Part shown: positions 3,001 through 61,462 of the stretch, piece by piece
Position numbering within the stretch: position 1 is the stretch's first letter
How the letters are laid out: the number at the start of each line of letters is the position of its first letter
Source of the DNA: Eledone cirrhosa
Lineage: Eukaryota
NCBI GenBank assembly: GCA_964016885.1
Contig: OZ024764.1
Location: 25,482,001 to 25,546,000, forward strand
Direction: 5' to 3'
Length of the DNA: 64,000 nucleotides
Notes under the pieces: generated by a model
What the model was told of the DNA's origin: nothing
The model's input: only the letters and a program-made list of their open reading frames with translations
Databases searched by the model: none
Program-made: the position numbers and the translations under genes

Positions 3001-6000
3001 ACTGAAGAGAGAAGACAGAAGAGAGAAGACAGAAGAGAGAAGACAGAAGAGAGAAGACAGAAGAGAGAAGAGAGAAGACAGAAGAGAGAAGACAGAAGAC
3101 AAAAGAGAGAAGACAGAAGAGAGAAGACAGAAGAGAGAAGACTGAAGAGAGAAGATAGAAGAGAGAAGACAGAAGACAAAAGAGAGAAGACTGAAGAGAG
3201 AAGACAGAAGAGAGAAGACAGAAGAGAGAAGACTGAAGAGAGAAGACTGAAGGGAGAAGACTGATGAGCGAAGACTGAAGAGAGAAGACTGAAGAGAGAA
3301 GACAGAAGAGAGAAGACAGAAGAGAGAAGAGAGAAGACAGAAGACAGAAGAGAGAAGATAGAAGAGAGAAGACTGAAGAGAGAAGACTGAAGAGAGAAGA
3401 CAGAAGAGAGAAGACAGAAGAGAGAAGACAGAAGACAGAAGAGACAAGACAGAAGACAGAAGAGAGAAGACTAAAGAGAAAAGACAGAAGAGAGAAGACT
3501 GAAGAGAGAAGACAGAAGAGAGAAGAGAGAAGATTGAAGAGAGAAGACTTTAGAGAGAAAACAGAAGAGAGAAGACAGGGGAGAGAAGAGAGAAGACTGA
3601 AGAGAAAAGACAGAAGAGAGAAGGCAGAAGAGAGAATGAAGAGAAGAAGAGAGAAGACAGAAGAGAGAAAACAGAAGAGAGAAGACAGGGGATAGAAGAG
3701 AGAAGAGAGAAGACTGAAGAGAAAAGACAGAAGAGAGAAGGCAGAAGAGAGAAGAGAGAAGAGAGAAGAGAAAAGACAGAAGAGAGAAGAAAGACGACAG
3801 AAGAGAGAAGACAGAAGAGAAAAGACAGAAGAGAGAAGAGAGAAGACAGAAGACAGAAGAGAGAAGCCTGAAGAGTGGAGACTGAAGAGAGAAGACTGAA
3901 GAGAGAAGACAGAAGAGGAAAGACAGAAGACAGAAGAGAGAATACTGAAGAGAGGAGCCACAATAGAGAAGACAGAAGAGAGAAGACTGAAGAGAGAAGA
4001 CAGCAGAGAGAAGACAGAAGAGAGAAGACAGAAAAGAGAAGACAAAAGACAGAAGACTGAAGAGAGAAGACAAATGAGAGAAGATAGAAGAGAGAAGACA
4101 GGAGAAGACAGAAGAGAGAAGACAGAAGACTGAAGAGAGAAGACAGAAGACTGAATAGAGAAGACTGAAGAGTGAAGACAGAAGAGAGAAGACAGAAGTG
4201 AGAAGACAGAAGAGGGAAGACAGAAGATAGAAGACAAAAGAGAGAAGACAGAAGACTGAAGAGAGAAGACAGATGAGAGAAGACAGAAGAGAGAAGACTG
4301 AAGAGAGAAAACAGTAGAGAGAAGAGAGAAGGCTGAGCAAAAAGACAGAAGAGAGAAAACAGAAGAGAGAAGAGTGAAGAGAGAAGAGTGAAGAGAGATG
4401 AGAGAAGACAGAAAAGAGAAGACAGAACACAGAAGTGAGAAGACAGAAGAGAGAAGAGGTAAGACAGAAGAGAGAAGATTGAAGAGAGAAGACAGAACAG
4501 AGAAGTGAGAAGGGAGAAGACAGAATAGAGAAGACACAAGAGAGAAGACATGAGAGAGAAAAGCGAAGAGAGAAGAGAGAAGACAGAAGAGAGAAGACTG
4601 AAGAGAGAAGACAGAAGGGAGAAGACTGAAGAGAGAAGACAGAAGGGAGAAGACAGAACAGAGAAGATAGAAGACAGAAGACTGAATAGAGAAGACAGAA
4701 GAGGGAAGACAGAAGACATAAGAGAGAAGACTGAAGAGTGAAGACAAGAGAGAAGACAGAAGAGAGAAGACTGAAGAGAGAAGACAGAAGAGAGAAGATA
4801 GAAGAGAGATGACAGTAGAGAGAAGAGAGAAGAGAGAAGACAGAAGAGAGAAGACAGAAGAGAGAAGATAGAAGAGAGAAGAATGAAGAGAGAAGACAAA
4901 AGAGAGGAGACAGAAGAGAGAAGACAGATGAGAGAAGACAGAAGAGAGAAGACTGATGAGAGAAGACAGAAGACAGAAGACTGAAGAGAGAAGACAGAAG
5001 ACTGAATAGAGAAGACAGAGGAGAGAAGACAGAAAAGAGAAGACTGAAGAGAGAAGACAGAAGAGAGAAGACAGAAGAGAGAAGAGAGAAGACAGAAGAG
5101 AGAAGACAGAAGACAAAAGAGAGAAGACAGAAGAGAGAAGACTGAAGAGAGAAGACAGAAGAGAGAAGACTGAAGAGAGAAGACTGAAGGGAGAAGACTG
5201 ATGAGCGAAGACTGAAGTGAGAAGACTGATGAGCGAAGACTGAAGAGAGAAGACTGAAGAGAGAAGACAGAAGAGAGAAGACAGAAGAGAGAAGACAGAA
5301 GAGAGAAGACAGAAGAGAGAAGAGAGAAGACAGAAGAGAGAAGACAGAAGACAAAAGAGAGAAGACAGAAGAGAGAAGACAGAAGAGAGAAGACAGAAAA
5401 GAGAAGACTGAAGAGAGAAGACTGAAGAGAGAAGACTGAAGAGAGAAGACAGAAAAGAGAAGACAGAAGAGAGAAGACTGAAGAGAGAAGACAGAAGAGA
5501 GAAGACAGAAGAGAGAAGACAGAAGAGAGAAGACAGAAGAGAGAAGACTGAAGAGAGAAGACTGAAGAGAGAAGACAGAAGAGAGAAGACAGAAGAGAGA
5601 AGACAGAAGAGAGAAGACTGAAGAGAGAAGACTGAAGGGAGAAGACTGATGAGCGAAGACTGAAGAGAGAAGACTGAAGAGAGAAGACAGAAGAGAGAAG
5701 ACAGAAGAGAGAAGAGAGAAGACAGAAGACAGAAGAGAGAAGATAGAAGAGAGAAGACTGAAGAGAGAAGACTGAAGAGAGAAGACAGAAGAGAGAAGAC
5801 AGAAGAGAGAAGACAGAAGAGAAAAGACAAGACAGAGAAGACAGAACAGAGAAGACAGAACAGAGCAGACTGAAGAGAGAAGACAGAAGAGAGAAGATAG
5901 AAGAGAGAAAACAGAAGAGAGAAGACAGAAGAGAGAAGACAGAAGAGAGAAGACAGAAGAGAGAAGACTGAAGAGAGAAGACAGAAGAGAGAAGACAGAA

Positions 6001-9000
6001 GAGAGAAGACAGAAGAGAGAAGACAGAAGAGAGAAGACAGAAGAGAGAAGACAGAAGAGAGAAGATAGAAGAGAGAAAACAGAAGAGAGAAGACAGAAGA
6101 GAGAAGACAGAAGAGAGAAGACAGAAGAGAGAAGACAGAAGAGAGAAGAACGAAGAGAGAAGACTGAAGGGAGAAGACAGAAGAGAGAAGACAGAAGAGA
6201 GAAGACAGAAGAGAGAAGACAGAAGAGAGAAGACTGAAGAGAGAAAACTAAAGGGAGAAGACTGATGAGCGAAGATTGAAGAGAGAAGACTGAAGAGAGA
6301 AGACAGAAGAGAGAAGACAGAAGAGAGAAGAGAGAAGACAGAAGAGAGAAGACAGAAGAGAGAAGACTGATGAGCGAAGACTGAAGAGAGAAGACTGAAG
6401 AGAGAAGACAGAAGAGAGAAGACTGAAGAGAGAAGACAGAAGAGAGAAGACAGAAGAGAGAAGACAGAAGAGAGAAGACAGAAGAGAGAAGACAGAAGAG
6501 AGAAGACAGAAGAGAGAAGACTGAAGAGAGAAGACTGAAGAGAGAAGACTGAAGGGAGAAGACAGAAGAGAGAAGACAGAAGAGAGAAGACAGAAGAGAG
6601 AAGAGAGAAGACAGAAGAGAGAAGACAGAAGACAAAAGAGAGAAGACAGAAGAGAGAAGACTGAAGAGAGAAGACAGAAGAGAGAAGACTGAAGAGAGAA
6701 GACTGAAGGGAGAAGACTGATGAGCGAAGACTGAAGTGAGAAGACTGATGAGCGAAGACTGAAGAGAGAAGACTGAAGAGAGAAGACAGAAGAGAGAAGA
6801 CAGAAGAGAGAAGACAGAAGAGAGAAGACAGAAGAGAGAAGAGAGAAGACAGAAGAGAGAAGACAGAAGACAAAAGAGAGAAGACAGAAGAGAGAAGACA
6901 GAAGAGAGAAGACTGAAGAGAGAAGATAGAAGAGAGAAGACAGAAGACAAAAGAGAGAAGACTGAAGAGAGAAGACAGAAGAGAGAAGACAGAAGAGAGA
7001 AGACTGAAGAGAGAAGACTGAAGGGAGAAGACTGATGAGCGAAGACTGAAGAGAGAAGACTGAAGAGAGAAGACAGAAGAGAGAAGACAGAAGAGAGAAG
7101 AGAGAAGACAGAAGACAGAAGAGAGAAGATAGAAGAGAGAAGACTGAAGAGAGAAGACTGAAGAGAGAAGACAGAAGAGAGAAGACAGAAGAGAGAAGAC
7201 AGAAGACAGAAGAGACAAGACAGAAGACAGAAGAGAGAAGACTAAAGAGAAAAGACAGAAGAGAGAAGACTGAAGAGAGAAGACAGAAGAGAGAAGAGAG
7301 AAGATTGAAGAGAGAAGACTTTAGAGAGAAAACAGAAGAGAGAAGACAGGGGAGAGAAGAGAGAAGACTGAAGAGAAAAGACAGAAGAGAGAAGGCAGAA
7401 GAGAGAATGAAGAGAAGAAGAGAGAAGACAGAAGAGAGAAAACAGAAGAGAGAAGACAGGGGATAGAAGAGAGAAGAGAGAAGACTGAAGAGAAAAGACA
7501 GAAGAGAGAAGGCAGAAGAGAGAAGAGAGAAGAGAGAAGAGAAAAGACAGAAGAGAGAAGAAAGACGACAGAAGAGAGAAGACAGAAGAGAAAAGACAGA
7601 AGAGAGAAGAGAGAAGACAGAAGACAGAAGAGAGAAGCCTGAAGAGTGGAGACTGAAGAGAGAAGACTGAAGAGAGAAGACAGAAGAGGAAAGACAGAAG
7701 ACAGAAGAGAGAATACTGAAGAGAGGAGCCACAATAGAGAAGACAGAAGAGAGAAGACTGAAGAGAGAAGACAGCAGAGAGAAGACAGAAGAGAGAAGAC
7801 AGAAAAGAGAAGACAAAAGACAGAAGACTGAAGAGAGAAGACAAATGAGAGAAGATAGAAGAGAGAAGACAGGAGAAGACAGAAGAGAGAAGACAGAAGA
7901 CTGAAGAGAGAAGACAGAAGACTGAATAGAGAAGACTGAAGAGTGAAGACAGAAGAGAGAAGACAGAAGTGAGAAGACAGAAGAGGGAAGACAGAAGATA
8001 GAAGACAAAAGAGAGAAGACAGAAGACTGAAGAGAGAAGACAGATGAGAGAAGACAGAAGAGAGAAGACTGAAGAGAGAAAACAGTAGAGAGAAGAGAGA
8101 AGGCTGAGCAAAAAGACAGAAGAGAGAAAACAGAAGAGAGAAGAGTGAAGAGAGAAGAGTGAAGAGAGATGAGAGAAGACAGAAAAGAGAAGACAGAACA
8201 CAGAAGTGAGAAGACAGAAGAGAGAAGAGGTAAGACAGAAGAGAGAAGATTGAAGAGAGAAGACAGAACAGAGAAGTGAGAAGGGAGAAGACAGAATAGA
8301 GAAGACACAAGAGAGAAGACATGAGAGAGAAAAGCGAAGAGAGAAGAGAGAAGACAGAAGAGAGAAGACTGAAGAGAGAAGACAGAAGGGAGAAGACTGA
8401 AGAGAGAAGACAGAAGGGAGAAGACAGAACAGAGAAGATAGAAGACAGAAGACTGAATAGAGAAGACAGAAGAGGGAAGACAGAAGACATAAGAGAGAAG
8501 ACTGAAGAGTGAAGACAAGAGAGAAGACAGAAGAGAGAAGACTGAAGAGAGAAGACAGAAGAGAGAAGATAGAAGAGAGATGACAGTAGAGAGAAGAGAG
8601 AAGAGAGAAGACAGAAGAGAGAAGACAGAAGAGAGAAGATAGAAGAGAGAAGAATGAAGAGAGAAGACAAAAGAGAGGAGACAGAAGAGAGAAGACAGAT
8701 GAGAGAAGACAGAAGAGAGAAGACTGATGAGAGAAGACAGAAGACAGAAGACTGAAGAGAGAAGACAGAAGACTGAATAGAGAAGACAGAGGAGAGAAGA
8801 CAGAAAAGAGAAGACTGAAGAGAGAAGACAGAAGAGAGAAGACAGAAGAGAGAAGAGAGAAGACAGAAGAGAGAAGACAGAAGACAAAAGAGAGAAGACA
8901 GAAGAGAGAAGACTGAAGAGAGAAGACAGAAGAGAGAAGACTGAAGAGAGAAGACTGAAGGGAGAAGACTGATGAGCGAAGACTGAAGTGAGAAGACTGA

Positions 9001-11323
9001 TGAGCGAAGACTGAAGAGAGAAGACTGAAGAGAGAAGACAGAAGAGAGAAGACAGAAGAGAGAAGACAGAAGAGAGAAGACAGAAGAGAGAAGAGAGAAG
9101 ACAGAAGAGAGAAGACAGAAGACAAAAGAGAGAAGACAGAAGAGAGAAGACAGAAGAGAGAAGACAGAAAAGAGAAGACTGAAGAGAGAAGACTGAAGAG
9201 AGAAGACTGAAGAGAGAAGACAGAAAAGAGAAGACAGAAGAGAGAAGACTGAAGAGAGAAGACAGAAGAGAGAAGACAGAAGAGAGAAGACAGAAGAGAG
9301 AAGACAGAAGAGAGAAGACTGAAGAGAGAAGACTGAAGAGAGAAGATAGAAGAGAGAAGACAGAAGACAAAAGAGAGAAGACTGAAGAGAGAAGACAGAA
9401 GAGAGAAGACAGAAGAGAGAAGACTGAAGAGAGAAGACTGAAGGGAGAAGACTGATGAGCGAAGACTGAAGAGAGAAGACTGAAGAGAGAAGACAGAAGA
9501 GAGAAGACAGAAGAGAGAAGAGAGAAGACAGAAGACAGAAGAGAGAAGATAGAAGAGAGAAGACTGAAGAGAGAAGACTGAAGAGAGAAGACAGAAGAGA
9601 GAAGACAGAAGAGAGAAGACAGAAGAGAGAAGACTGAAGAGAGAAGACTGAAGGGAGAAGACTGATGAGCGAAGACTGAAGAGAGAAGACTGAAGAGAGA
9701 AGACAGAAGAGAGAAGACAGAAGAGAGAAGAGAGAAGACAGAAGACAGAAGAGAGAAGATAGAAGAGAGAAGACTGAAGAGAGAAGACTGAAGAGAGAAG
9801 ACAGAAGAGAGAAGACAGAAGAGAGAAGACAGAAGAGAAAAGACAAGACAGAGAAGACAGAACAGAGAAGACAGAACAGAGCAGACTGAAGAGAGAAGAC
9901 AGAAGAGAGAAGATAGAAGAGAGAAAACAGAAGAGAGAAGACAGAAGAGAGAAGACAGAAGAGAGAAGACAGAAGAGAGAAGACTGAAGAGAGAAGACAG
10001 AAGAGAGAAGACAGAAGAGAGAAGACAGAAGAGAGAAGACAGAAGAGAGAAGACAGAAGAGAGAAGACAGAAGAGAGAAGATAGAAGAGAGAAAACAGAA
10101 GAGAGAAGACAGAAGAGAGAAGACAGAAGAGAGAAGACAGAAGAGAGAAGACAGAAGAGAGAAGAACGAAGAGAGAAGACTGAAGGGAGAAGACAGAAGA
10201 GAGAAGACAGAAGAGAGAAGACAGAAGAGAGAAGACAGAAGAGAGAAGACTGAAGAGAGAAAACTAAAGGGAGAAGACTGATGAGCGAAGATTGAAGAGA
10301 GAAGACTGAAGAGAGAAGACAGAAGAGAGAAGACAGAAGAGAGAAGAGAGAAGACAGAAGAGAGAAGACAGAAGAGAGAAGACTGATGAGCGAAGACTGA
10401 AGAGAGAAGACTGAAGAGAGAAGACAGAAGAGAGAAGACTGAAGAGAGAAGACAGAAGAGAGAAGACAGAAGAGAGAAGACAGAAGAGAGAAGACAGAAG
10501 AGAGAAGACAGAAGAGAGAAGACAGAAGAGAGAAGACTGAAGAGAGAAGACTGAAGAGAGAAGACTGAAGGGAGAAGACAGAAGAGAGAAGACAGAAGAG
10601 AGAAGACAGAAGAGAGAAGAGAGAAGACAGAAGAGAGAAGACAGAAGACAAAAGAGAGAAGACAGAAGAGAGAAGACTGAAGAGAGAAGACAGAAGAGAG
10701 AAGACTGAAGAGAGAAGACTGAAGGGAGAAGACTGATGAGCGAAGACTGAAGTGAGAAGACTGATGAGCGAAGACTGAAGAGAGAAGACTGAAGAGAGAA
10801 GACAGAAGAGAGAAGACAGAAGAGAGAAGACAGAAGAGAGAAGACAGAAGAGAGAAGAGAGAAGACAGAAGAGAGAAGACAGAAGACAAAAGAGAGAAGA
10901 CAGAAGAGAGAAGACAGAAGAGAGAAGACAGAAAAGAGAAGACTGAAGAGAGAAGACTGAAGAGAGAAGACAGAAGAGAGAAGACAGAAGAGAGAAGACT
11001 GAAGAGAGAAGACTGAAGAGAGAAGATAGAAGAGAGAAGACAGAAGACAAAAGAGAGAAGACTGAAGAGAGAAGACAGAAGAGAGAAGACAGAAGAGAGA
11101 AGACTGAAGAGAGAAGACTGAAGGGAGAAGACTGATGAGCGAAGACTGAAGAGAGAAGACTGAAGAGAGAAGACAGAAGAGAGAAGACAGAAGAGAGAAG
11201 AGAGAAGACAGAAGACAGAAGAGAGAAGATAGAAGAGAGAAGACTGAAGAGAGAAGACTGAAGAGAGAAGACAGAAGAGAGAAGACAGAAGAGAGAAGAC
11301 AGAAGACAGAAGAGAGAAGACTC
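1..11323 (+). repeat. Purine-strand 7-mer satellite (GAAGAGA/GAAGACA/GAAGACT) with higher-order duplications
   Basis: Continuous 7-bp periodicity. Identical diverged landmarks recur at 520/4550/8321 and 3875/7646 (spacings 4030 and 3771 bp). Confidence 0.97.
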
Positions 11324-28055: not shown

Positions 28056-28305
28056 CGAAGGGCAATAATAAATAGGTAGATAGATAGTTTTATATATATA
28101 AATAAAATTAGAATTTTATTTCTCGCTCTAGCACAGCTGATACATGAATGTAACTTTGCATATGTACACACACATATATATGTACACACACACATATATA
28201 TATACACACACATATATATATATATATACACACATACATATATACATATATATATGTGCGTATGGGTCATATCGAACATTAATATTTGTTTCTACTTACA
28301 CAGTG

Positions 28306-28452
28306 AATTACTGGTACTTTATTTTATTGACCCCGTAAGGATGAAGGGCAAAGTTAAGCTCAGCGGGATTTGAACTCAGAATGGCAAGGGCCTTAACTCT
28401 ATGCGTCAAAGCATGGCGTCTGACCCTCTACCGATACTGCCAATCCACTGCC
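28306..28452 (-). mobile_element. Nin/Deu-domain tRNA SINE copy
   Basis: Homologous to 12905-13095. Confidence 0.75.
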
Positions 28453-28528
28453 ATCATTAATAATAATAATAGATTTGTTAGTAAACAAACAGCCAGTATA
28501 AAGCTGTGCCATGCCGATGGCTTTGAGG

Positions 28529-28573
28529 AACAATCAACACGTTTCTGGGTCATTAACCTTCATCAGGACTGTT
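28529..28573 (-). ncRNA. Minimal type I hammerhead ribozyme motif
   Basis: aacagtc-CTGATGA-aggttaatgaccca-GAAA-CGTG-TT-gattgtt. Confidence 0.65.
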
Positions 28574-28707
28574 TATCTCTACTAAACCTTTGAACTGTTG
28601 AAAATATATAATATTTTCTAAAGTAGACATCAGCTGAGTAACCTCACTTGCAGACCGAGCAAGTTTTGGCTGACCTTGCCGAAAAATAGAATTAGAATTT
28701 TAGACCA

Positions 28708-31700
28708 TTGCCTTGGACATCAGTGGTATGGAGAAGGCAGACTGGTAAGTATGGACAACTGTTGGTCTTTCTGTCTTTCCCTTCGACATCAGTGGTATGG
28801 AGAAGGAAGACTGGTAAGTATGGACAACTGTTGGTCTTTCTGTCTTTCCCTTGGACATCAGTGGTATGGAGAAGGGAGACTGGTATGTATGGACAACTGT
28901 TGGTCTCTCTGTCTTTCCCTTGGACATCAGTGGTATGGAGAAGGGAGACTGGTAATAATGGACAACTGTTGGTCTTTCTGTCTTTCCCTTGGACATCAGT
29001 GGTATGGAGAAGGGAGACTGGTAAGTATGGACAACTGTTGGTCACTCTGTCTTTCCCTTGGACATCAGTGGTATGGAGAAGGGAGACTGGTAAGTATGGA
29101 CAACTGTTGGTCTTTCTGTCTTTCCCTTGGACATCAGTGGTATGGAGAAGGGAGACTGGTAAGTATGGACAACTGTTGGTCTTTCTCTCTTTCCCTTGGA
29201 CATCAGTGGTATGGAGAAGGGAGACTGGTATGTATGGACAACTGTTGGTCTTTCTGTCTTTCCCTTGGACATCAGTGGTATGGAGAAGGGAGACTGGTAA
29301 GTATGGACAACTGTTGGTCTCTCTGTCTTTCCCTTGGACATCAGTGGTATGGAGAAGGGAGACTGGTATGTATGGACAACTGTTGGTCTTTCTGTCTTTC
29401 CCTTGGACATCAGTGGTATGGAGAAGGGAGACTGGTTAGTATGGACAACTGTTGGTCTCTCTGTCTTTCCCTTGGACATCAGTGGTATGGAGAAGGGAGA
29501 CTGGTAAGTATGGACAACTGTTGGTCTTTCTGTCTTTCCCTTGGACATCAGTGGTATGGAGAAGGGAGACTGGTAAGTATGGACAACTGTTGGTCTCTCT
29601 GTCTTTCCCTTGGACATCAGTGGTATGGAGAAGGGAGACTGGTATGTATGGACAACTGTTGGTCTTTCTGTCTTTCCCTTGGACATCAGTGGTATGGAGA
29701 AGGGAGACTGGTATGTATGGACAACTGTTGGTCTTTCTGTCTTTCCCTTGGACATCAGTGGTATGGAGAAGGGAGACTGGTTAGTATGGACAACTGTTGG
29801 TCTCTCTGTCTTTCCCTTGGACATCAGTGGTATGGAGAAGGGAGACTGGTAAGTATGGACAACTGTTGGTCTTTCTGTCTTTCCCTTGGACATCAGTGGT
29901 ATGGAGAAGGGAGACTGGTTAGTATGGACAACTGTTGGTCTCTCTGTCTTTCCCTTGGACATCAGTGGTATGGAGAAGGGAGACTGGTATGTATGGACAA
30001 CTGTTGGTCACTCTGTCTTTCCCTTGGACATCAGTGGTATGGAGAAGGGAGACTGGTTAGTATGGACAACTGTTGGTCTCTCTGTCTTTCCCTTGGACAT
30101 CAGTGGTATGGAGAAGGGAGACTGGTATGTATGGACAACTGTTGGTCTTTCTGTCTTTCCCTTGGACATCAGTGGTATGGAGAAGGGAGACTGGTATGTA
30201 TGGACAACTGTTGGTCTTTCTGTCTTTCCTTGGACATCAGTGGTATGGAGAAGGGAGACTGGTAAGTACGGACAACTGTTGGTCTTTCTGTCTTTCCCTT
30301 GGACATCAGTGGTATGGAGAAGGGAGACTGGTAAGTATGGACAACTGTTGGTCTCTGTCTTTCCTTTGGACATCAGTGGTATGGAGAAGGGAGACTGGTA
30401 AGTATGGACAACTGTTGGTCTTTCTGTCTTTCCCTTGGACATCAGTGGTATGGAGAAGGGAGACTGGTAAGTATGGACAACTGTTGGTCTTTCTGTCTTT
30501 CCCTTGGACATCAGTGGTATGGAGAAGGGAGACTGGTAAGTATGGACAACTGTTGGTCACTCTGTCTTTCCCTTGGACATCAGTGGTATGGAGAAGGGAG
30601 ACTGGTAAGTATGGACAACTGTTGGTCTTTCTGTCTTTCCCTTGGACATCAGTGGTATGGAGAAGGGAGACTGGTAAGTATGGACAACTGTTGGTCTCTG
30701 TCTTTCCCTTGGACATCAGTGGTATGGAGAAGGGAGACTGGTAAGTATGGACAACTGTTGGTCTCTCTGTCTTTCCCTTGGACATCAGTGGTATGGAGAA
30801 GGGAGACTGGTAAGTATGGACAACTGTTGGTCTTTCTGTCTTTCCCTTGGACATCAGTGGTATGGAGAAGGGAGACTGGTTAGTATGGACAACTGTTGGT
30901 CTTTCTGTCTTTCCCTTGGACATCAGTGGTATGGAGAAGGGAGACTGGTAAGTATGGACAACTGTTGGTCTCTCTGTCTTTCCCTTGGACATCAGTGGTA
31001 TGGAGAAGGGAGACTGGTAAGTATGGACAACCTTTGGTCTTTCTCTCTTTCCCTTGGACATCAGTGGTATGGAGAAGGGAGACTGGTTAGTATGGACAAC
31101 TGTTGGTCTTTCTGTCTTTCCCTTGGACATCAGTGGTATGGAGAAGGGAGACTGGTAAGTATGGACAACTGTTGGTCTTTCTGTCTTTCCCTTGGACATC
31201 AGTGGTATGGAGAAGGGAGACTGGTATGTATGGACAACTGTTGGTCTCTCTGTCTTTCCCTTGGACATCAGTGGTATGGAGAAGGGAGACTGGTATGTAT
31301 GGACAACTGTTGGTCTTTCTGTCTTTCCCTTGGACATCAGTGGTATGGAGAAGGGAGACTGGTAAGTATGGACAACTGTTGGTCTCTCTGTCTTTCCCTT
31401 GGACATCAGTGGTATGGAGAAGGGAGACTGGTATGTATGGACAACTGTTGGTCTTTCTGTCTTTCCCTTGGACATCAGTGGTATGGAGAAGGGAGACTGG
31501 TAAGTATGGACAACTGTTGGTCTCTCTGTCTTTCCCTTGGACATCAGTGGTATGGAGAAGGGAGACTGGTATGTATGGACAACTGTTGGTCACTCTGTCT
31601 TTCCCTTGGACATCAGTGGTATGGAGAAGGGAGACTGGTTAGTATGGACAACTGTTGGTCTTTCTGTCTTTCCCTTGGACATCAGTGGTATGGAGAAGGG

Positions 31701-32963
31701 AGACTGGTTAGTATGGACAACTGTTGGTCTCTCTGTCTTTCCCTTGGACATCAGTGGTATGGAGAAGGGAGACTGGTTAGTATGGACAACTGTTGGTCTT
31801 TCTGTCTTTCCCTTGGACATCAGTGGTATGGAGAAGGGAGACTGGTAAGTATGGACAACTGTTGGTCACTCTGTCTTTCCCTTGGACATCAGTGGTATGG
31901 AGAAGGGAGACTGGTATGTATGGACAACTGTTGGTCACTCTGTCTTTCCCTTGGACATCAGTGGTATGGAGAAGGGAGACTGGTAAGTATGGACAACTGT
32001 TGGTCTTTCTGTCTTTCCCTTGGACATCAGTGGTATGGAGAAGGGAGACTGGTAAGTATGGACAACTGTTGGTCTTTCTGTCTTTCCCTTGGACATCAGT
32101 GGTATGGAGAAGGGAGACTGGTTAGTATGGACAACTGTTGGTCTTTCTGTCTTTCCCTTGGACATCAGTGGTATGGAGAAGGGAGACTGGTAAGTATGGA
32201 CAACTGTTGGTCACTCTGTCTTTCCCTTGGACATCAGTGGTATGGAGAAGGGAGACTGGTATGTATGGACAACTGTTGGTCACTCTGTCTTTCCCTTGGA
32301 CATCAGTGGTATGGAGAAGGGAGACTGGTAAGTATGGACAACTGTTGGTCTTTCTGTCTTTCCCTTGGACATCAGTGGTATGGAGAAGGGAGACTGGTAA
32401 GTATGGACAACTGTTGGTCTTTCTGTCTTTCCCTTGGACATCAGTGGTATGGAGAAGGGAGACTGGTAAGTATGGACAACTGTTGGTCTCTCTGTCTTTC
32501 CCTTGGACATCAGTGGTATGGAGAAGGGAGACTGGTTAGTATGGACAACTGTTGGTCTTTCTGTCTTTCCCTTGGACATCAGTGGTATGGAGAAGGGAGA
32601 CTGGTAAGTATGGACAACTGTTGGTCTCTCTGTCTTTCCCTTGGACATCAGTGGTATGGAGAAGGGAGACTGGTAAGTATGGACAACTGTTGGTCTTTCT
32701 GTCTTTCCCTTGGACATCAGTGGTATGGAGAAGGGAGACTGGTAAGTATGGACAACTGTTGGTCTCTCTGTCTTTCCCTTGGACATCAGTGGTATGGAGA
32801 AGGGAGACTGGTAAGTATGGACAACTGTTGGTCTCTCTGTCTTTCCCTTGGACATCAGTGGTATGGAGAAGGGAGACTGATAAGTATGGACAACTGTTGG
32901 TCTTTCTGTCTTTCCCTTGGACATCAGTGGTATGGAGAAGGGAGACTGGTATGTATGGACAAC
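28708..32963 (+). repeat. 69-bp tandem satellite, ~62 highly homogeneous copies
   Basis: Unit CCTTGGACATCAGTGGTATGGAGAAGGGAGACTGGTAAGTATGGACAACTGTTGGTCTTTCTGTCTTTC; variation is mostly confined to two sites. Confidence 0.98.
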
Positions 32964-35928: not shown

Positions 35929-36471
35929 ACTAGTACAGCGTTCCTTTGTCTGTGTTGAACAAACGAGCAACTATGGTTGCTAGACACTACGGCTTAATTC
36001 GGGATGTTTGTTTACAAACACACCGAGCATTATAATAAATGTTTGGTGAATCCATACGTACATATATATATGTGTGCATGTATGTATATATATATACATA
36101 CTACTGTACGTCTGTATACATATATGTATGTACGTGTACATAGTTATATTTAAGTAACAGCCGTACTAAGAGTGAGAAATTAAATTTTGTTTCATTTTTT
36201 CCGTTTATCGTTTTTCGGTACCCCGGCCGATTAACTCACTCGATATGCAAATTAGGCTGCTCAGCCGTTAATATGCATAAGGAAAGTATATACTTTCAGA
36301 CGTTCAACCATCTGGTAGGAAGGTATACGTTGCTGATGATAGCTAATAAGCTTGAAACTAGTTCAGCGTTCCTTTGTCACTGTTGAACAAATGAGCAACG
36401 ATGGTTGCTGGACACTGTACGGCTTAATTCGGGATGTTTGTTTACAAACACACCGAGTATTATAATAAATT
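35929..36471 (+). mobile_element. Retrozyme-like non-coding element, 428-nt unit with partial tandem duplication
   Basis: 35930-36040 is repeated at 36358-36470 (offset 428) and starts exactly at hammerhead stem III; no ORF. Confidence 0.65.
36327..36369 (+). ncRNA. Minimal type I hammerhead ribozyme motif
   Basis: acgttg-CTGATGA-tagct aata agctt-GAAA-CTAG-TT-cagcgt. Confidence 0.75.
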
Positions 36472-37018
36472 GATGGAAGCCACGGAGTAGGCAGACCCAG
36501 AAAAACCTGGGACGATCTGATAAATTCTAACCTCACACACTTACACCTCTCCAAGACAATGTCACTGGACCGAGATCCTTGGCGCTATGCAGTAATACAG
36601 AAGACCCACCTTGTCTAAGTACAAAGCGAAAGCTAGTCAGTAGGCACCTCTTAATCAAATATACACTCCCTCCCCACCCACTACTCCAACTCTCCCCACC
36701 TCCATCCACACCACCCCTTTCTCTGTAAAGTTATGTTGGTACCACAATATCCAGGCCGAAACAAATGAGGATGTGTAGGTATCATGACAAAAAAACACAC
36801 AGTCCACGCTGTAATGTGGCCGTGTAGGTAACACGGTAAAAACCTCCCAGCCCCACACTGTAAACGTGGTTGGTGTTAGGAAGGGCATCCAGCCGTAGAA
36901 AAACCGCCAGACAGTCCTATACGAGCAAGACAGCCAATCTTGCCTCAAGTGGGAAAACTCCCGTCCAAACCCATGCAAGTGTGGAAGATGGACGTTAAAC
37001 TATGATGATGATGATGAT
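36470..37018 (+). mobile_element. RTE LINE family B 3' fragment
   Basis: GRPRKTW...SLDRD, 3'UTR and (GAT)n tail. Confidence 0.85.
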
Positions 37019-45662: not shown

Positions 45663-46205
45663 AAATAAATCCCCTTTTTTGTACTATTGACCATGTTATT
45701 CTCCACTTTTTCAATTATATTACTCCAAAATAAACTTACATAGGAATACAAGTGAAATCATAAACTCGTCATCTACGTAACCCTCTTGTTGAGTCAAGCA
45801 ACGCCGTATGCTAAAACTATCCATAATAAGAAGTATTCACAACCTCTAACTGGATTACCTATAATGATATTTTGTTATCCTTTATATATATATAGTGATA
45901 GAACACTGGAAGGTAATATCCATAGTGGAAGAGCACTCAGTCCATGGGACGAATTAGGTAGAAGTGGTTACACAACAGTTATGAACTAACTGTTGTGTAA
46001 CCACTTCTATATATATATATATAATCATATATATATAAAAAGAAATGTTTCCCTCTACATGACTGAATACAATAAATGTAACCTGAGTTTTTCGAATATT
46101 AATAACATTCGATTTGTTTTCAATTATGAAAACAAGCCTCAATTTTATAGCCATGTCAGTAGAATGAACCCTTCATTCTTGCTCTTATGTTGGCATGTGA
46201 ACAGA

Positions 46206-46251
46206 ACTGCAGACACTAATGTTTCTGGGTATCACCCTTCATCAGTACAGC
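46206..46251 (-). ncRNA. Minimal type I hammerhead motif, sense to the host pre-mRNA
   Basis: gctgta-CTGATGA-agggt gat accca-GAAA-CATTAGTG-TC-tgcagt. Confidence 0.75.
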
Positions 46252-46554
46252 CCTCTACCGATACTGCCAATCCAATAATAATATTCAATTTGATTCTAAA
46301 AAATGTTCTGGGGTAGCATTTTTCTCTCCACCCTCATCCTCCGCTCCAGGTGGAACTTGAAAAAATAATTGTATTAACCAGTGATGAATGATGTGAAAGA
46401 AATGCAATAGGTTGGCTTGGTCATGTGTTGAGGATGGATGAAAGTGAGTGGATAATTGACTCATGTCAGTGATGATAAAAAGAGAGTGAGATAGTGAGGG
46501 AGAGAGAGAAAGACAAAGGTAAACTAAAAATGAAATAACAAAAAAAAAACTTAC

Positions 46555-47373
46555 CTGTAACCGTAGCAACCAGCTGTAATGTTTGATGTCATTGAGTACA
46601 AGTGAGTGACCCTGCTCCACAGCAAGTATGACCCCTTTGTGTCGCAGCGACCCAGATATTCGGTCCCCACGCAGGCAAAATCCAAGCTGTTGGACGATGA
46701 GTGGATTCTCAAGGGTAATGTAGAAGAGGATCTCTCGCAGGAGCCGATAGTTTCCCATGTACGTGCACTTCACCGCGTCGTAGACACTCTGCATGCAGCT
46801 GACTTTGGTGTTGAGGTCACGACCCTGAGTCTTCAATACGACCTCTCGCTTCTTGACCAGGCCAACGTCCACATACTTGCGGTCACTGGTTGACAGTGAC
46901 GTGTAGATGTGGGCAGCATCTAGCTCCTTGCAGCTGAGCTTTGAAAAATAGCCGAGATCATGCAATAGCCGCTGAGTAAGCAGGACAACCTCATCTGCGT
47001 CCAGCGCCTTGCCCCAATCAGCCGGGTATAGAACCGGCAGAAAGGCCCGGATCTGTGCAACCCTTTTCTCCACGTGGGCGAGAAGCTGTTTGCCACCAAC
47101 GACTGCCTCGCCCACAGACAACCACTGCAAAACGCTGTTTCTTTGTACTCCACCACCTCTGTCAGTGTCATCGCCACCTTGCAATGAGGCCATCACTGCC
47201 TTTTTGTTGTAGCTCCACATTGCGTCGGCATCATCATCATCACCAATGCTAAACGAATTCAAGCGCGTTATCCAGACGATCACAAAGAAGATGACGACAA
47301 AAGGCACGAGCCATTTGCGTAAGCGCACTCGGCTGCGTCTCCGCATTAGGCTTTTCAGGTACGTCACGATCAT
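46555..47373 (-). CDS. PKDCC: PKDCC/VLK-like secretory kinase homologue, first visible coding exon (type II membrane anchor plus kinase N-lobe)
   Basis: Basic N-terminus (RRRSRVRLRK) then a hydrophobic segment (WLVPFVVIFFVIVWI). LSC, EVVLK (beta3 Lys), the CMQSVYDAVKC Cys pair, LLREI (alphaC Glu), NPLIVQQLGFC and EQG...SWLLRLQ are colinear with vertebrate PKDCC. Donor CAG|GTAAG at 46554; upstream polypyrimidine/TTTCAG acceptor at 47394-47395. The ORF-track tail after LRLQ is intron read-through. Confidence 0.85.
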
Positions 47374-47925
47374 GTTATTGTCTCTGACCTCATCTGAAAT
47401 GACACAAAAATATATAAAATAAATAAATAAATGAACGGAAATGATGAAATTGCATGCATGTATAATCCAATAACTCCCAAGGGAGTTGTAGGGGTGTCAT
47501 ATTGACAGAGTCCTTCTTCTCTCCAACAGATTTCTTCCAGAGAAGGTGAGAGAGAGTGAGAGAAAGGAAGTGAGTAAGAAATCTAGAGGCAGAATCGACC
47601 CCAGTACTTGACTGGTATTATATTTGTAAGTATGTATCATTCTGTAACTCCTGATGGAGTCATAGGGGCGCCATATTGACATCCAGTATTTCTAGCGCAA
47701 TTTCTTTTTTTTATTAAAATCGGAGCCCAATACCTCTCAGGTGAATACAGCAGATTTCTTCCAGAGAAGAAGAGGGAGTAAACTATAAAAGTAGCTACTT
47801 CACTTTGTCCTCATTAAATTCACCTTGTCCTCATTCTTAGTGCAAGCTTTGAAAAGTGCAGTTTATTTAAAATCTTAAAAAGGAAAGAAGTATAAATAAA
47901 ATGCATTATTTATGGGATGGCCAGG

Positions 47926-50568: not shown

Positions 50569-50727
50569 TATATACATATATATATACATATACATATACA
50601 TATATATAAACGGAAAAAATGAAACAAAATTTCATTTCCCACTCTTAGTACGGCTGTTACTTAAATATAAGTATGTATACGTACATACATATATGTATAC
50701 AGACGTACAGTAGTATGTATATATATA

Positions 50728-50779
<52 letters not shown>

Positions 50780-51830: not shown

Positions 51831-52936
51831 TCTACCTGCAGTAACGACCAATAGATAGTATTAGCAACTGGAAGGACCAAGGAAAAAAGGGAAACATTGT
51901 TTCCTTGGTTCAATTTGACGAAAGTCAATCCACTGTCGATATATATACACTATTTGGGAGGGTCATGCTGCCAATATACACACGCACCTGTTGGTTGTGT
52001 TTTTATTGGCAGTATGACCCTCCCAAAGTATAACAATATCTGTTTCAACATGTTTTCAAATAAGAAATCTTGTAAAACAATACAAAAACAACATACATAC
52101 ATATATATATACATACATATATATATACATACATATATATGTGTATCATCATTTCATTTCATTTTAGGTCCACTTTTCCCTGCTTGCAAGGGTGGGACGG
52201 GAACTGATTCTGGCTTGATTTCTACAGCTGGATGCCCTTCCTAACACCAACCTCATTTACAGTGAGTGCTGGGTGCTTTTTTGCCGTGGCACCTCCACGA
52301 CCACTTTACAGTGGAATGATAGGGACCCCAGTCCCTATCATCTCATTTTTACAGTTGAGTAAACTGGAGCAATGTGAAATAAAGTGTCTTGCTCAAGGAG
52401 ACAACACATCACCCGGTCTGAGATTGAACTCACAACCTTTCGATTGCAAGGCCAATGCTCTAACCACTACGCCATGTGCCACACATGAGTATATACATAT
52501 ATATATAAACATATATATATATATGAGTGTATATATATATATATATAAACATATATATATATATATGAGTGTATATATATATAAACATATATATATATGA
52601 GTGTATATATATATATATATATATATATAAACATATATATATATGAGTATATATATATGAGTGTATATATATATATATATATATGAGTGTATATATATAT
52701 GAGTGTATATATATATATATAAGTGTATATATATACAATTAAGTTAAAAACTGAAATACTAGTATGCATATGAATACACACACGTGTACATATGTAGATG
52801 TACCGAGTTTTCACTGGTCACTTTACTGTGAGTGTCCAGCTATTCTGTATGTAAACACACAGACAAACCGGTTTTTAGAGTCATACTGGTTTTTGAGGAA
52901 ACACCTTTCCTCTATTCTCCAGAAAGCCAGACAAGG

Positions 52937-52981
52937 AATATTGGACTAGTTTCGATGTTGTTACATCTCATCAGCAATATT
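52937..52981 (-). ncRNA. Minimal type I hammerhead ribozyme (inverted copy)
   Basis: Exact reverse complement of 53336-53380. Confidence 0.85.
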
Positions 52982-53335
52982 TACCTATCTTCCGGCCTCT
53001 CTAGAGAATCGTGAAAGCACATATCGTTATATGCTTTTCGTGTGTGTATTCATCGTTATATGCATATCGTGTGTGTATTCATATGCATACTAGTATTTCA
53101 GTATACATATGTGGATGTACATTTTTAACTTAATTGTTTAAGCGTCAGTCATACAAAAGTGAGTTACAAACGAAACGAAATTTAATTTCGTTTCGTTATT
53201 TGTTTTTATCGTCTCCGTTGAACCGGTACGTACTCACGCTCTATGCAAATTGGTCTGCCCACTACTAATTTTCATAGAAAAAGCATATAACGATATGTGC
53301 TTTCACGATTCTCTAGAGAGGCCGGAAGATAGGTA

Positions 53336-53380
53336 AATATTGCTGATGAGATGTAACAACATCGAAACTAGTCCAATATT
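53336..53380 (+). ncRNA. Minimal type I hammerhead ribozyme, intact
   Basis: aatattg-CTGATGA-gatgt aaca acatc-GAAA-CTAG-TC-caatatt: 7-bp stem I, 5-bp stem II with G-C closing pair, palindromic stem III, GUC cleavage triplet. Confidence 0.88.
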
Positions 53381-53711
53381 CCTTGTCTGGCTTTCTGGAG
53401 AATAGAGGAAAGGTGTTTCCTCAAAAACCAGTATGACTCTAAAAACCGGTTTGTCTGTGTGTTTACATACAGAATAGCTGGACACTCACAGTAAAGTGAC
53501 CAGTGAAAACTCGGTACATCTACATATGTACACGTGTGTGTATTCATATGCATACTAGTATTTCAGTATACATATGTGGATGTACATTTTTAACTTAATT
53601 GTTTAAGCGTCAGTCATACAAAAGTGAGTTACAAACGAAACGAAATTTAATTTCGTTTCGTTATTTGTTTTTGTATATATATATATAAGTGTATATATAT
53701 ATATATATATA

Positions 53712-56015
53712 TTGGCCTTTTCCTTCTTTTTTCTATCAAGGACGAATTCCCCAATGCGGGCGGTGGTTTGTACCATGACGATGGTCTTTTGACCATGACT
53801 AAGTGCGGACCTCGTGCTTGCGACAGGTTCAGAAAAGAATTCACAGCCTTCTTTAAAGGCTTCAACCTCTCTATACAGGTTGAGGCCAATCTCTCGGTCG
53901 TTAATTACCTCGACGTTACCCTCAATTTATTGAATGGGTTGTATCACCCGTATAGAAAGCCGAATGATACACTTAATTACATAAGTAAGCATTCCAACCA
54001 TCCTGCCAGCATAACCAAGAACCTGGTAAGAAACGTTTCGTTGAGGCTTTCCCGTCTTTCCACCAACGAGCGTATTTTCAACGACCATTCCACTTATTAC
54101 AATGAAGCTCTTGCTCGAAGTAGATTTTTCGATAAGGTAGCATATACAGAGTACAAAAATAGACCTAGAAGAAATAGATCCCGTCACATTTGTTGGTATA
54201 ACCCACCATATAATATGGAGGTGGCCACACCATTAGCTAAGATCTTTCTTTCCCTTATTGCGAAGCATTTTCCCCCTACACATAAGTATAGTAAAATTTT
54301 TAATAGAAATACTATTAAAATTTCTTACTCTACGACTCCTAACGTTGCACACAACCTCACAGCTTCAAATTTAGCTAAACTACCTAGCCGTAGGAATACC
54401 TGCAACCCTGTAGTTAGTACTAACTGTAATTGTAGGAATCGGGTTGATTGCCCCCTATCCGGGAAATGCCTCTCTAGTAACATTGTCTACAAATGTAAGG
54501 TTGTAACACCCACGTCAGGTAGAGCCAACATAGGGTTAACCGCCAATAGATTCAAGCAGCGTCTTTACATGCATACCCATTCTTTTCGTTACCCTCTAAG
54601 AAGGAATATGACGTCACTTTCAGCTTATATCTAGAGTCTAAAAGACAACCACACCCAATATAAGTTACAGTGGGAGATCCTAGCTAGGGCTAGATCATAT
54701 AACGGAAATAAAAGACCATGTGACCTCTGCGCCGCTGAGGCCCTGGAAATACTCTACGCCACTGACCACATCTTAAACAAAAAATCTGAGGTAATTTCGG
54801 CTTGTAAACATAAATTGCACAAAACTTTCCTGTATTACAGCCCCACGTTATACCCTAACGGATAGCACGATTTATACGTGGATATTTTACGTCTTGATGT
54901 GGGAGCTAAGTATATGTTTTGTTTATACCATTACTTATTTGCATAGGTAAGTATATATTACCCGTATGTTTTGTGAAGGTATGTATACCTTCTCGTACGT
55001 ATATTTGACTGTTATGGCGTATCATTTTTACATATTTTGGTATTTAGGGTTTGGCTATGTGTATACGGGAGTTTTGCGTCCGAGTGAGTATGCAGGTTCG
55101 TACGTATGGTGGGTGTGTGTATATGTGTACTTCATGTTTTGGTTGACTTACGTCTCTGAATATTCATGTATTTACATGTAGGTATGTGTGTGCGCTTGTT
55201 ATATATGTATTTATTTATTTATATACGTTTATATAATTATTTATTTATTTGTATACACGCATACAAACACACACATATTTATATGTGCGTGGTTTCATAT
55301 ACCTATGGTAAGTGTTTTGCGTATGCTTGTGTATGTACGTTTATGGATGCGTGTATGTATTTATTTATTTCTATTACTTCTGTATTGTATTTATTTACTT
55401 TGTTCTTAACTCTGTATATACCATAACATACACTATTTGGAGATATGGATGTTACAATTCAATCTATACACGTATAGCAGAACATTGAACTGAACTTACT
55501 TGCGTGTGTATAGGGTTGCGGTTGACCCAATTTTTCCAATTTACATCGTCACTTTGAGATTTGACCAATATAACATTTGTTGTTTTGTAAACTAACTTTC
55601 AGTGAATACTATGTTGGTATATTTATATTTTTTCTTTGACCTCGCGTCGATGTGTTTTAGTGTGTGTGTACCCACTCACATTAACTGTGACCGACTGTAA
55701 TTCTACAGATTTGATTGATGTCCAGCGTCTTTTACAGCTATTGGGAGATAGAGACTTGATAGTTTTATGACCCTAACTGAGGACGATAACAGTCGCCGTG
55801 TTTTGACTGCTTGATCTTCATATGTGGGACTAAACTCTGTGAGTGAACACCGTTCATTTTCTCCCTCATATCAAGGATTTGAAGACAATTCCTTTTCACC
55901 TGACGAGATCAGTGATAATCGATCATGGCTACACGATCGATCTATCTCTTATTGAAACATGTGTCATGATTAAAATGATTGGAAATTTATACCATGCCTT
56001 CGGATCTTTATTTTG
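53712..56015 (+). mobile_element. Penelope-like retroelement (probably Naiad-type), 5'-truncated: RT C-terminus, GIY-YIG, long 3'UTR with hammerhead
   Basis: GLYHDDGL, NYLDVTLNL, PYRKP, SNHP, WYNPP, CNCR..DCPLSGKC, IVYK..NIGLT..FKQR. The frame continues past TAG at 54632 with WEIL, CDLC and LNKKSE. Confidence 0.9.
55896..55969 (+). ncRNA. Hammerhead motif at the 3' end of the Penelope-like element
   Basis: tcac-CTGACGA-stem II (atcgatc/gatcgat)-GAAA-CATGTG-TC-atga; slightly decayed. Confidence 0.6.
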
Positions 56016-56607
56016 ATACAAATACTCTGTTTTACATCATCTAGCTGTTCCCACACACACACATATATATCACACACACACATATATCACACACACGCAC
56101 ATATATCACACACACACACTTATATCACACACACACTTCAGCTCAACACACACACATACATTACACAGCCCTCACACACACCACACACTTCAAACCCTTC
56201 TCTCCTGGTGATGGTAATTATGAGGTGATGACATTGTGTTATCATCATCACCATTTTACATCCATTCTTCCACACTAGCATGGGTTAGACAAGCTGTCCT
56301 GTTATGGGCAATGTTAGGTCAGACATCATGATCAGACATCAATGTTAGGTCAGACACCTACATGACCACTTTACAGTGTGGACTGGGTACTTTTTGTTGT
56401 GACACCTACATGACCACTTTACAGTGTGGACTGGGTACTTTTTGTCATCATATTTACACGACCCTATACAGTGGAAGGGTGGGGTGGGTGTAAATACATA
56501 TATTCTTCTAAATGCTATGCTTAATTTCAAAAAAGCATTTAAAAAAAGACGAACTTCCTATACAACTTCTATTATATACACAATAACATCCAAATTATAT
56601 ATATATA

Positions 56608-57774: not shown

Positions 57775-58832
57775 TCGAGATCTTAGGCGCTATGCAGTAA
57801 TACAGAAGATCCACCTTCCCTTGCATACAAAATTAAAACTATACACCCAACATCATCCTCCTACACCACCCTTTCTCTGTAAAGTTATGTTAACACAAAA
57901 CATCCATCCCACACTGTAAAGTGGTCATGTAGGTGTCACAACAAAAAGTCCCTAGTCCACACTGTAAAGTGGTCATGTAGGTGTTACAACAATAAACACC
58001 CAGTCCACACTGTAAAGTGGTCATGTAGGTGTCACAACAAAAAATACCGTCCACACTGTAAAGTGGTCATGTAGGTGTCACAACAAAAAGCACCCAGTCC
58101 ACACTGTAAAGTGATCATGTAGGTGTCACAACAAAAAGTACCCAGTCCACACTGTAAAGTGGTCATGTAGGTGTCACAACAAAAAGCACCCAGTCCACAC
58201 TGTAAAGTGATCATGTAGGTGTCACAACAAAAAATACCGTCCACACTGTAAAGTGGTCATGTAGGTGTCACAACAAAAAGCACCCAGTCCACACTGTAAA
58301 GTGATCATGTAGGTGTAACAACAAAAATCACCCAGTCCACACTGTAAAGTGATCATGTAGGTGTCACAACAAAAAGTACCCAGTCCACACTGTAAAGTGG
58401 TCATGTAGGTGTCACAACAAAAAGCACCCAGTCCACACTGTAGAGTGGTCATGTAGGTGTCACAACAAACTACACTCAGTCCACACTGTAAAGTGGTCAT
58501 GTAGGTGTCACAACAAAAAATACCGTCCACACTGTAAAGTGGTCATGTAGGTGTCACAACAAAAAGTACCCAGTCCACACTGTAAAGTGGTCATGTAGGT
58601 GTCACAACAAAAAGTACCATCCCCACTGTAAAGTGGTCATGTAGGTGTCACAACAAACAGTACCCAGTCCACACTGTAAAGTGGTTGGCGTTAGGAAGGG
58701 CATCCAGCCATCGAAAAGCCAGCCAGAAACAGTTCTATACGAGCGAGACACGGTCACCTGACCCAACTTGCCTCAAGTGGGACAAACCCGTCTAACTCAT
58801 GCTAACATGGAAGATAGACGTTAAACGATGAT
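57775..58832 (+). mobile_element. RTE family B 3' end containing a 47/48-bp tandem array (~57905-58682, ~16 copies)
   Basis: Unit GTCCACACTGTAAAGTGGTCATGTAGGTGTCACAACAAAAAGCACCCA lies between the RTE ORF end and the GGAAGGGCATCC/(GAT)n tail. Confidence 0.9.
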
Positions 58833-59990: not shown

Positions 59991-61462
59991 CCCTTTAGCA
60001 TTTACATTACTCTATATAAACTATTGTATTGACACAGTAAAGGCTTTACCTCACATAATATCTCACATAACATTTACATTACTCTATATATACTATTGTA
60101 TTTTCACAGTAAAGGCTTTATCTCACATAATATCTCACATAACATTTACATTACTCTATATATACTATTGTATTGTCACAGTAAAGGCTTTACCTCACAT
60201 AATATCTCACATAACATTTACATTATTCTATATATACTATTGTATTTTCACAGTAAAGGCTTTACCTTACATAATATCTCACATAACATTTACATTACTC
60301 TATATATACTATTGTATTTTCACAGTAAAGGCTTTACCTCACATAACATCTCACATAACATTTACATTACTCTATATATACTATTGTATTTTCACAGTAA
60401 AGGCTTTTCCTTACATAATATCTCACATAACATTTACATTACTCTATATATACTATTGTATTTTCACAGTAAAGGCTTTACCTCACATAATATCTCACAT
60501 AACATTTACATTACTCTATATATACTATTGTATTTTCACAGTAAAGGCTTTACCTTACATAATATCTCACATAACATTTACATTACTCTATATATACTAT
60601 TGTATTTTCACAGTAAAGGCTTTACCTCACATAATATCTCACATAATATTTACATTACTCTATATATACTATTGTATTGTCACAGTAAAGGCTTTACCTC
60701 ACATAATATCTCACATAACATTTACATTACACTATATATACTATTGTATTTTCACAGTAAAGGCTTTACCTCACATAATATCTCACATAACATTTACATT
60801 ACTCTATATATACTATTGTATTTTCACAGTAAAGGCTTTACCTCACATAATATCTCACATAACATTTACATTACACTATATATACTATTGTATTGTCACA
60901 GTAAAGGCTTTACCTCACATAATATCTCACATAACATTAACATTACTCTATATATACTATTGTATTGTCACAGTAAAGGCTTTACCTCACATAATATCTC
61001 ACATAACATTTACATTACCCTATATATACTATTGTATTTTCACAGTAAAGGCTTTACCTCACATAATATCTCACATAACATTTACATTACTCTATATATA
61101 CTATTGTATTGTCACAGTAAAGGCTTTACCTCACATAATATCTCACATAACATTAACATTACTCTATATATACTATTGTATTTTCACAGTAAAGGCTTTA
61201 CCTTACATAATATCTCGCATAACATTTACATTATTCTATATATACTATTGTATTGTCACAGTAAAGGCTTTACCTCACATAATATCTCACATAACATTTA
61301 CATTACACTATATATACTATTGTATTGTCACAGTAAAGGCTTTACCTCACATAATATCTCACATAACATTTACATTACACTATATATACTAGTGTATTGT
61401 CACAGTAAAGGCTTTACCTCACATAATATTGAATCTTCGAAATTTTGATGTTATTTATTTTG
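59991..61462 (+). repeat. 72-bp tandem satellite (~20 copies) within a second piggyBac-like MITE copy
   Basis: Unit CACAGTAAAGGCTTTACCTCACATAATATCTCACATAACATTTACATTACTCTATATATACTATTGTATTTT; starts at CCCTTTAGC. Confidence 0.95.

Follow-up and report, generated by a model that had tools for sequence, protein, structure and literature searches.

A new non-LTR retrozyme family in Eledone cirrhosa with a Penelope-type insertion pattern

The genome of Eledone cirrhosa carries non-LTR retrozymes of a new family, named family A here, with a Penelope-type insertion pattern. Its member at 35929-36471 (+) of the DNA analyzed (64,000 nucleotides of contig OZ024764.1, assembly GCA_964016885.1, hereafter the window) is one truncated, damaged copy of a high-copy, non-coding repeat of ~430 nt with a hammerhead motif. 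Family A copies stop at either of two fixed 3′ points, while their 5′ ends are scattered, and we consider it probable (roughly 0.8) that they were copied into (TA)n by a Penelope-like reverse transcriptase (RT)/endonuclease, probably of the Hydra type.

The repeat unit, its ribozyme and its relatives

Positions 35929-36040 of the window recur at 36357-36470 with an offset of 428 nt and 105 of 114 columns identical (92.1%, blastn within the window), in agreement with a first-pass annotation, made from the sequence alone, that had described a 428-nt unit repeating its first ~110 nt. The two 110-nt repeats belong to different subfamilies, making the copy a chimera. Its 5′ edge adjoins a short (TA)n run, and its 3′ truncation, at about +107 of the unit, is followed at 36472 by an unrelated repeat that, from its translation, looks LINE-like. 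No open reading frame (ORF) was found in the unit beyond low-complexity read-through. The third fragment that the annotation had placed at ~50610-50720 (−) was recovered with slightly wider limits and is 92% identical to 36059-36208 (Table 1).

The full hammerhead reported at 36327-36369 was found at those positions as a type I motif, with the core CUGANGA...GAAA...NUH, three helices and an open stem I. It consists of a stem I of ACGTTG/CAGCGT, the core CTGATGA...GAAA, a stem II of AGCT/AGCT and a CTAG stem III. Its triplet is GUU, while that of the main subfamily is GUA (96 versus 0 in loci L073-L148). Stem I positions 1-6 are paired in 539-556 of 562 motifs, a count in which overlapping loci enter more than once, and within family A this stem varies from U-G to G-U, with A-U in a few copies. 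The Rfam hammerhead models gave no match at gathering score within the window. Both the fold and the cut site of the family A unit are predictions, and self-cleavage is putative. Hammerheads with a short stem III are described as needing a dimer for cleavage (PMC4209133); by analogy, given the short palindromic stem III, the family A motif would probably cleave, if at all, as a dimer.

Table 1 Coordinates of the window features
Feature	Position	Strand	Remarks
Family A retrozyme copy	35929..36471	+	~1.26 units; 5′-truncated at unit −7/−6, 3′-truncated at ~+107; chimera of two subfamilies
Half of a hammerhead (stem III, GUA triplet and the stem I 3′ strand)	35929..35941	+	Predicted cut between 35935 and 35936; upstream catalytic core absent
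5′ strand of predicted long-range helix into the tail	35988..35995	+	Pairs with 36158-36166; helix 6
Small predicted hairpin, loop at the short 3′ end	36143..36158	+	Putative RT start site 1; equivalent hairpin at the family B short end
Tail (~57 nt), from the short to the long 3′ end	36152..36208	+	Long end at ~36208, putative RT start site 2
Type I hammerhead motif, short palindromic (CUAG) stem III	36327..36369	+	Predicted cut between 36363 and 36364
3′ part of unrelated LINE-like repeat	36472..36760	+	Abuts and ends the family A copy; 5 further long matches in the window
Family A fragment	50606..50753	−	5′-truncated in the TA-rich part; ends at the long end, then (TA)n
Inverted arm of family B (465-nt unit), including a hammerhead	52735..53038	−	Ends at the short end
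Family B sense arm, ~1.3 units	53058..53672	+	Hammerhead GUC, predicted cut between 53373 and 53374; long end into (TA)n
5′-truncated autonomous Penelope-like element	53713..56050	+	RT to GIY-YIG-like ORF remnant at 53723-54864; Hydra-type motifs; 3′ limit approximate

The genome (3.0 Gb) is rich in microsatellites and holds more than 10,000 occurrences of family A, with 13,531 and 11,129 exact matches to two 20-mers of the family. A pattern for sister ribozymes had 1,496 genome matches, mostly one further subfamily among the 100 matches listed. Two long one-strand arrays of a family A deletion subfamily (L200 and L201, on G000:C1 near 96.99 Mb and 300.72 Mb) carry mixed, repeating variants, as a retrozyme turned satellite.

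The annotation had also proposed that the window unit is related to a 465-nt unit near 53 kb, family B here. This relationship was borne out by blastn (E 1e-7 over 228 nt) and by global alignment, which gave 70% identity (292/417) and a score of 316 against a maximum of 138 in 200 shuffles (z 17.9); with the ribozyme removed, the homology is still significant (z 7.9 and 5.0). The common order of short motifs it had listed is visible in these alignments; TTTAAG, AGTGAG and GAAATT are contained in the tail, and the listed motifs as a whole lie in the tail span and directly after it (Table 1). With 354 candidates, family B is the smaller of the two, and it is young (the matches listed are 99-100% identical); the loci described here are its best-scoring, youngest matches.

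Natural units folded as circles have predicted energies of −130 to −154 kcal/mol (z −5.6 to −9.0, 25 shuffles each). Over eight aligned units, 94.5% of the cells can pair, and both-sided changes occur in 19 of 118 pairs, compared to 4.8 in shuffles, spread over 11 of the 16 helices; in the long-range helix into the tail, families A and B differ at both partners of two pairs. The compensatory change that the annotation had seen in the ribozyme stems, altered but still pairing, extends across the whole unit. As the eight sequences are related, family B is a single lineage and the structure was derived from the same alignment, the comparison shows conservation of the predicted RNA fold between the two families rather than a level of significance. 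By prediction and covariation, the unit RNA is highly self-paired, as in non-LTR retrozymes. The extended stem I would bring both ends of a cut-to-cut monomer close to each other, which suits ligation, yet it is also simply part of the ribozyme.

Other hammerhead-like motifs were noted in and outside the window. The element at 28240-28600 (−) is related to family A more distantly and is older; its hammerhead differs (GUU, with the core at 28566), and 100 of 140 positions are identical in a local alignment (z 16.8). It appears to be interrupted by a ~160-nt repeat that resembles a tRNA-type SINE. A hammerhead-like motif at 46190-46255 (−) has a longer stem III, a GUC triplet and a stem II resembling that at 28.5 kb, and its similarity to family A is not significant (score 44, shuffle maximum 45). 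Six further CTGANGA cores, at 13299(−), 14744(+), 45278(−), 45338(+), 55900(+) and 63002(+), have an AT-rich stem I and a long stem II like minimal Penelope-type hammerheads; the pairing filter was passed by 14744(+) only. Elsewhere in the genome, a hammerhead-bearing tandem repeat with a 311-nt period (L149:273 and 584, +) is by eye unrelated to families A and B. The window also contains large satellites at 1-11320 (14-nt period), 28711-32963 (69-nt), 57892-58685 (48-nt) and 59999-61429 (72-nt), and a 402-aa open frame at 46285-47496 (−) that by eye resembles a real exon, with a membrane-anchor-like start and a kinase-like end; a Pfam search gave no match for this frame.

Two fixed 3′ ends and scattered 5′ ends

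Family A insertions were collected from the 76 loci behind the first 100 position-ordered matches of a 34-mer at about +58, and their arms were mapped on a natural tandem array; 125 arms were kept after filtering on score, length, GC and locus edge. Of these, 110 end at two points, 59 at +205-222 and 51 at +268-282 (the short and long ends), where they typically run into (TA)n. This microsatellite target was seen by eye in the 3′ flanks rather than tallied. The other 15 arms have 3′ ends elsewhere, as does the window copy.

Insertions of family A show variable 5′ truncation and an inverted 5′ arm. The 76 loci contain 40 head-to-head pairs: 28 combine a long with a short end, three are short+short, two are long+long and seven have an odd end, so that long+short makes up 28 of the 33 scorable pairs (binomial P 3e-5). 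Each of the 16 two-armed family B insertions for which both ends could be seen combines a long with a short end, the ends lying at +227-232 and +297-301; single-arm loci were left out of this count, and one pair ran off its stretch.

Penelope-like elements are described as inserting into (TA)n or other microsatellites, with an inverted copy on the 5′ side and, optionally, a tail that is present at just one end (PMC8557442). In an in vitro system, such a tail corresponds to the stretch from one internal RT start site to a second, and both target strands are extended (PMC11167929). The fixed twin 3′ ends of family A match this tail, with two likely internal start sites as judged from the genomic ends, and the insertion pattern points to Penelope-type mobilization. 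The same pattern contradicts a spread of the unit as a satellite or minisatellite by DNA-level recombination with a vestigial ribozyme, local array growth excepted. Long arrays and periodic variants do occur, as such a spread would have it, but it is made extremely improbable by copies that are dispersed and end at two fixed 3′ points, by the strand asymmetry of the arm pairs and by the compensatory RNA pairing found all along the unit.

The 5′ ends of the family A arms are distributed over the whole unit (16, 18, 7, 13, 7, 14, 7, 14, 18 and 11 per 43-nt bin for the 125 arms). The first-pass annotation had read the start of the window copy as lying exactly at the ribozyme cleavage region and as the mark of reverse transcription from a self-cleaved RNA. 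On this account, a self-cleaved linear RNA would be the template, and copies would begin at the cut as the RT ran off its 5′ end. The window copy does begin close to the cut, and there are weak excesses nearby: five family A ends fall within −2..+6 where 2.3 are expected (P = 0.08), and a hand count puts the start of 4 arms among 40 of family B (3 loci) at +2..+11 where about one is expected. However, the first homologous position of the window copy is 35929/35930, which lies upstream of the predicted cut by 6-7 nt, and the copy thus retains nucleotides that cleavage would take off; since a self-cleaved RNA would begin with CAGCG, it could not template the CTAGTA upstream. Moreover, a cut site is crossed by 101 of the 125 arms, and 57 are of more than unit length.

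Genome-wide, the upstream sequence is lost at the cut in 235 of 13,531 anchors and at a control site near −54 in 388 of 11,129. When the first 100 rows of each were judged by eye and indel variants dropped, 77 (cut) and 36 (control) were true junctions, giving corrected rates of ~1.3% at the cut and ~1.3% at the control. Hence, cut anchoring is not the rule in family A, with a small excess possible, and for 5′ ends the outcome is the one that the annotation itself had set against its claim: endpoints random with respect to the cleavage site. Self-cleaved linear RNA is largely refuted as the main route, and we regard it as highly improbable. The identification of the window element as a retrozyme, sister to the family at 53 kb, stands, and its start as a trace of reverse transcription from the cut does not; that start is most likely a chance 5′ truncation, and the single copy flagged is an ordinary damaged insertion. 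A circular template for family A stays possible for reasons other than cut anchoring.

In family B, the 5′ breaks of several arms (L039, L184-L187, L195 and L040) recur at palindromes, at +69-73 of the unit in four loci, at +276 in two and at +2 in both arms of one, which suggests joins guided by fold-back.

A likely helper and the form of the template

The Penelope-like element at 53.7 kb is an insertion separate from the family B arm in the same (TA)n, and it represents a candidate helper clade. Natural full copies encode an intact 713-aa ORF in which RWR, DKT, CxCx5C, CxxC and CxH motifs were recognized by eye, motifs described for the (TA)n-targeting Hydra clade (PMC8557442). The closest Atlas clusters of this ORF include GIY-YIG and RVT_1 carriers, and searches of Pfam and the PDB gave nothing informative for the 713-aa protein or the window fragments. 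Hydra-type Penelope-like elements are abundant in the genome (72,435 first-look candidates). Among the 173 arm junctions examined, one locus (L122) clearly joins a 1,168-nt Penelope-like 3′ arm head to head and directly to an arm of family A, a second (L020) is another such fusion, and a third (L114) is ambiguous. These abundant elements are the likely source of the enzyme for family A.

We also considered that the unit might be the pseudo-LTR of an autonomous Penelope-like element and its copies the 5′-truncated remains of that element. The end signature is identical, terminal repeats of Penelope-like elements contain hammerheads (PMC4209133), and at one locus (L161) an endonuclease frame is fused to the unit at +219. 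This fusion is unique, though, none of 14 other copies of the same element continuing into family A, and L161 was rejected as the parent element. Arms beyond unit length enter another unit, not an ORF, and the Penelope-like elements at L149/L150 and L122 differ in terminal sequences and ribozymes. At the mapped loci, no RT plus GIY-YIG ORF was found linked to the repeat in the manner of an autonomous Penelope-like element, and none of the three autonomous Penelope-like families examined has terminal repeats resembling A or B. We therefore consider this origin quite improbable. The 53.7-kb element was also rejected as the owner of the family B repeat: the terminal sequence of its full copies differs, and (TA)n separates the two.

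Two side observations concern Penelope-like families. At L161:1738-1741 and L099, a family A arm is immediately preceded on its 5′ side by one and the same Penelope-like family, similarly oriented, by template switch or insertion. An abundant Hydra-type family (L149/L150 downstream of the ORF; L020, L114) has a hammerhead-like motif with CAGAAGA replacing CTGANGA and seemingly two 3′ ends ~90-110 nt apart.

Mobilization of family A by a Penelope-like protein could proceed as follows. Tandem units would be transcribed, and two tandem ribozymes would cut the transcript to a unit-length RNA, its ends held by the extended stem I and perhaps ligated to a circle. The conserved tail structure would be bound by the helper protein, and both strands of the (TA)n target nicked. 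Each strand would then prime cDNA synthesis at an internal site of the RNA, the hairpin loop (+215-220) for one strand and a point ~57 nt downstream (+275) for the other. The RT would pass the cut junction, on a circle or an uncut multimer, and halt at near-random points, and the two cDNA arms would join head to head.

The form of the template was addressed through haplotypes. In family B, each of 16 arrays out of 16 carries one of seven haplotypes in every unit of both arms, over up to 18 units, while three arrays show period-2, -3 or -4 variant patterns. Family A arms often mix subfamily haplotypes (agreement at variable columns is 77% within loci versus 67% between), and a lone monomer circle is therefore insufficient as an explanation; nor would a single monomer circle yield the window copy, which mixes two haplotypes. 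Haplotype switches were located across the cut in 6 of 82 cases and across the TA/tail part in 2 of 16 (Fisher P = 0.61, with many segments unclassified); a separate linkage comparison gave r2 values of 0.52 and 0.43.

On the fullest explanation, A and B would be circular ribozyme RNAs copied by a Hydra-type Penelope protein through twin-primed rolling-circle reverse transcription. Both target strands would prime at two structured sites of the circle and go round up to ~17 times, the helper being recruited by the conserved tail fold and not by a common sequence. We hold this reading tentatively, at a little short of an even chance; for a circle as the template, taken by itself, the odds are about even. 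An uncut linear multimer, read through from arrays already present, differs from the Penelope-type mobilization set out above in template form alone, with tandems arising also via re-insertion into older copies, template switching and unequal crossover and with no circle. The mixed haplotypes of family A arms, the window copy included, and the periodic variants of the three family B arrays fit such a multimer, but the single haplotype throughout each family B array does not, and linear templates 5′-truncated in every round would be expected to shrink the arrays. We regard the multimer as a serious alternative, somewhat below even odds. In the in vitro system mentioned above, uncut RNA is the main substrate and no RNA ends were found at the ribozyme cut (PMC11167929).

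Relation to known systems and significance

Like non-LTR retrozymes, family A is built of short, non-coding units in tandem, each of which has one type I hammerhead. No LTR-flanked structure was seen in ~100 mapped loci. In common with the metazoan non-LTR retrozymes described by Cervera and de la Pena (2020, PMC7229834), it is a short non-coding tandem with a GC content below 50%, a type I hammerhead with a short stem III, a highly self-paired predicted circle, thousands of copies and Penelope-like elements alongside. In contrast to those retrozymes, the A and B units are somewhat longer than the 170-400 nt RNAs reported, were seen with no target-site duplication and target (TA)n. Circles and cleavage have been demonstrated in metazoan retrozymes (PMC7229834), whereas A and B are known here from the genome sequence. 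Fixed twin 3′ ends and inverted arms are features of A and B; the words "inverted" and "octopus" have no match in the main text of PMC7229834.

With the Hydra-clade Penelope-like elements of Craig et al. (2021, PMC8557442), the two families share (TA)n targeting, 5′ truncation, partial tandems, an inverted 5′ arm, a one-end tail and a hammerhead. They differ from that clade in having no ORF, a tail of ~57 nt (A) or ~70 nt (B) compared to 30-40 nt, a unit repeated up to 18 times, and no sequence match to any terminal repeat in the three autonomous families that were compared. The anole Poseidon PAc in vitro system (Frangieh et al. 2024, PMC11167929) resembles A and B in its two internal RT starts that define the tail, one of them in a stem-loop, in its use of both target strands and an AT-rich target, and in the lack of ends at the ribozyme cut. 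Unlike A and B, PAc is autonomous with start sites in its ORF, while those of A and B would lie in non-coding structured RNA, as judged from genomic ends.

Li, Clavereau and Pollet (bioRxiv 10.64898/2026.07.22.740005) present vertebrate non-LTR retrozymes as non-autonomous Penelope-like derivatives, the same helper link as proposed here. Their basis is vertebrate co-occurrence and a pLTR phylogeny, and ours is the insertion ends. In the same preprint, one of nine tested dimers cleaved, which advises caution on activity, and no mollusc is among the groups it lists. The main text of the Octopus vulgaris repeat annotation (PMC13282606) has no match for "ribozyme". Neither cephalopod retrozymes nor retrozymes ending in a Penelope-type tail came up in the literature covered, most subscription journals and Repbase lying outside that coverage.

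The mover of animal retrozymes and the circle as their template are posed as open questions in PMC7229834 and in the preprint. Families A and B show the Penelope tail signature at base resolution, which yields two likely RT start sites, a likely helper clade and a conserved fold. Going by the near identity of its copies, family B may be young enough for activity. If the rolling-circle reading is true, the two families would be evidence, taken directly from a genome, that animal retrozymes retrotranspose from circRNA templates as has been proposed, and family B, with its 99-100% identical copies, would be a still-active substrate for reconstitution.
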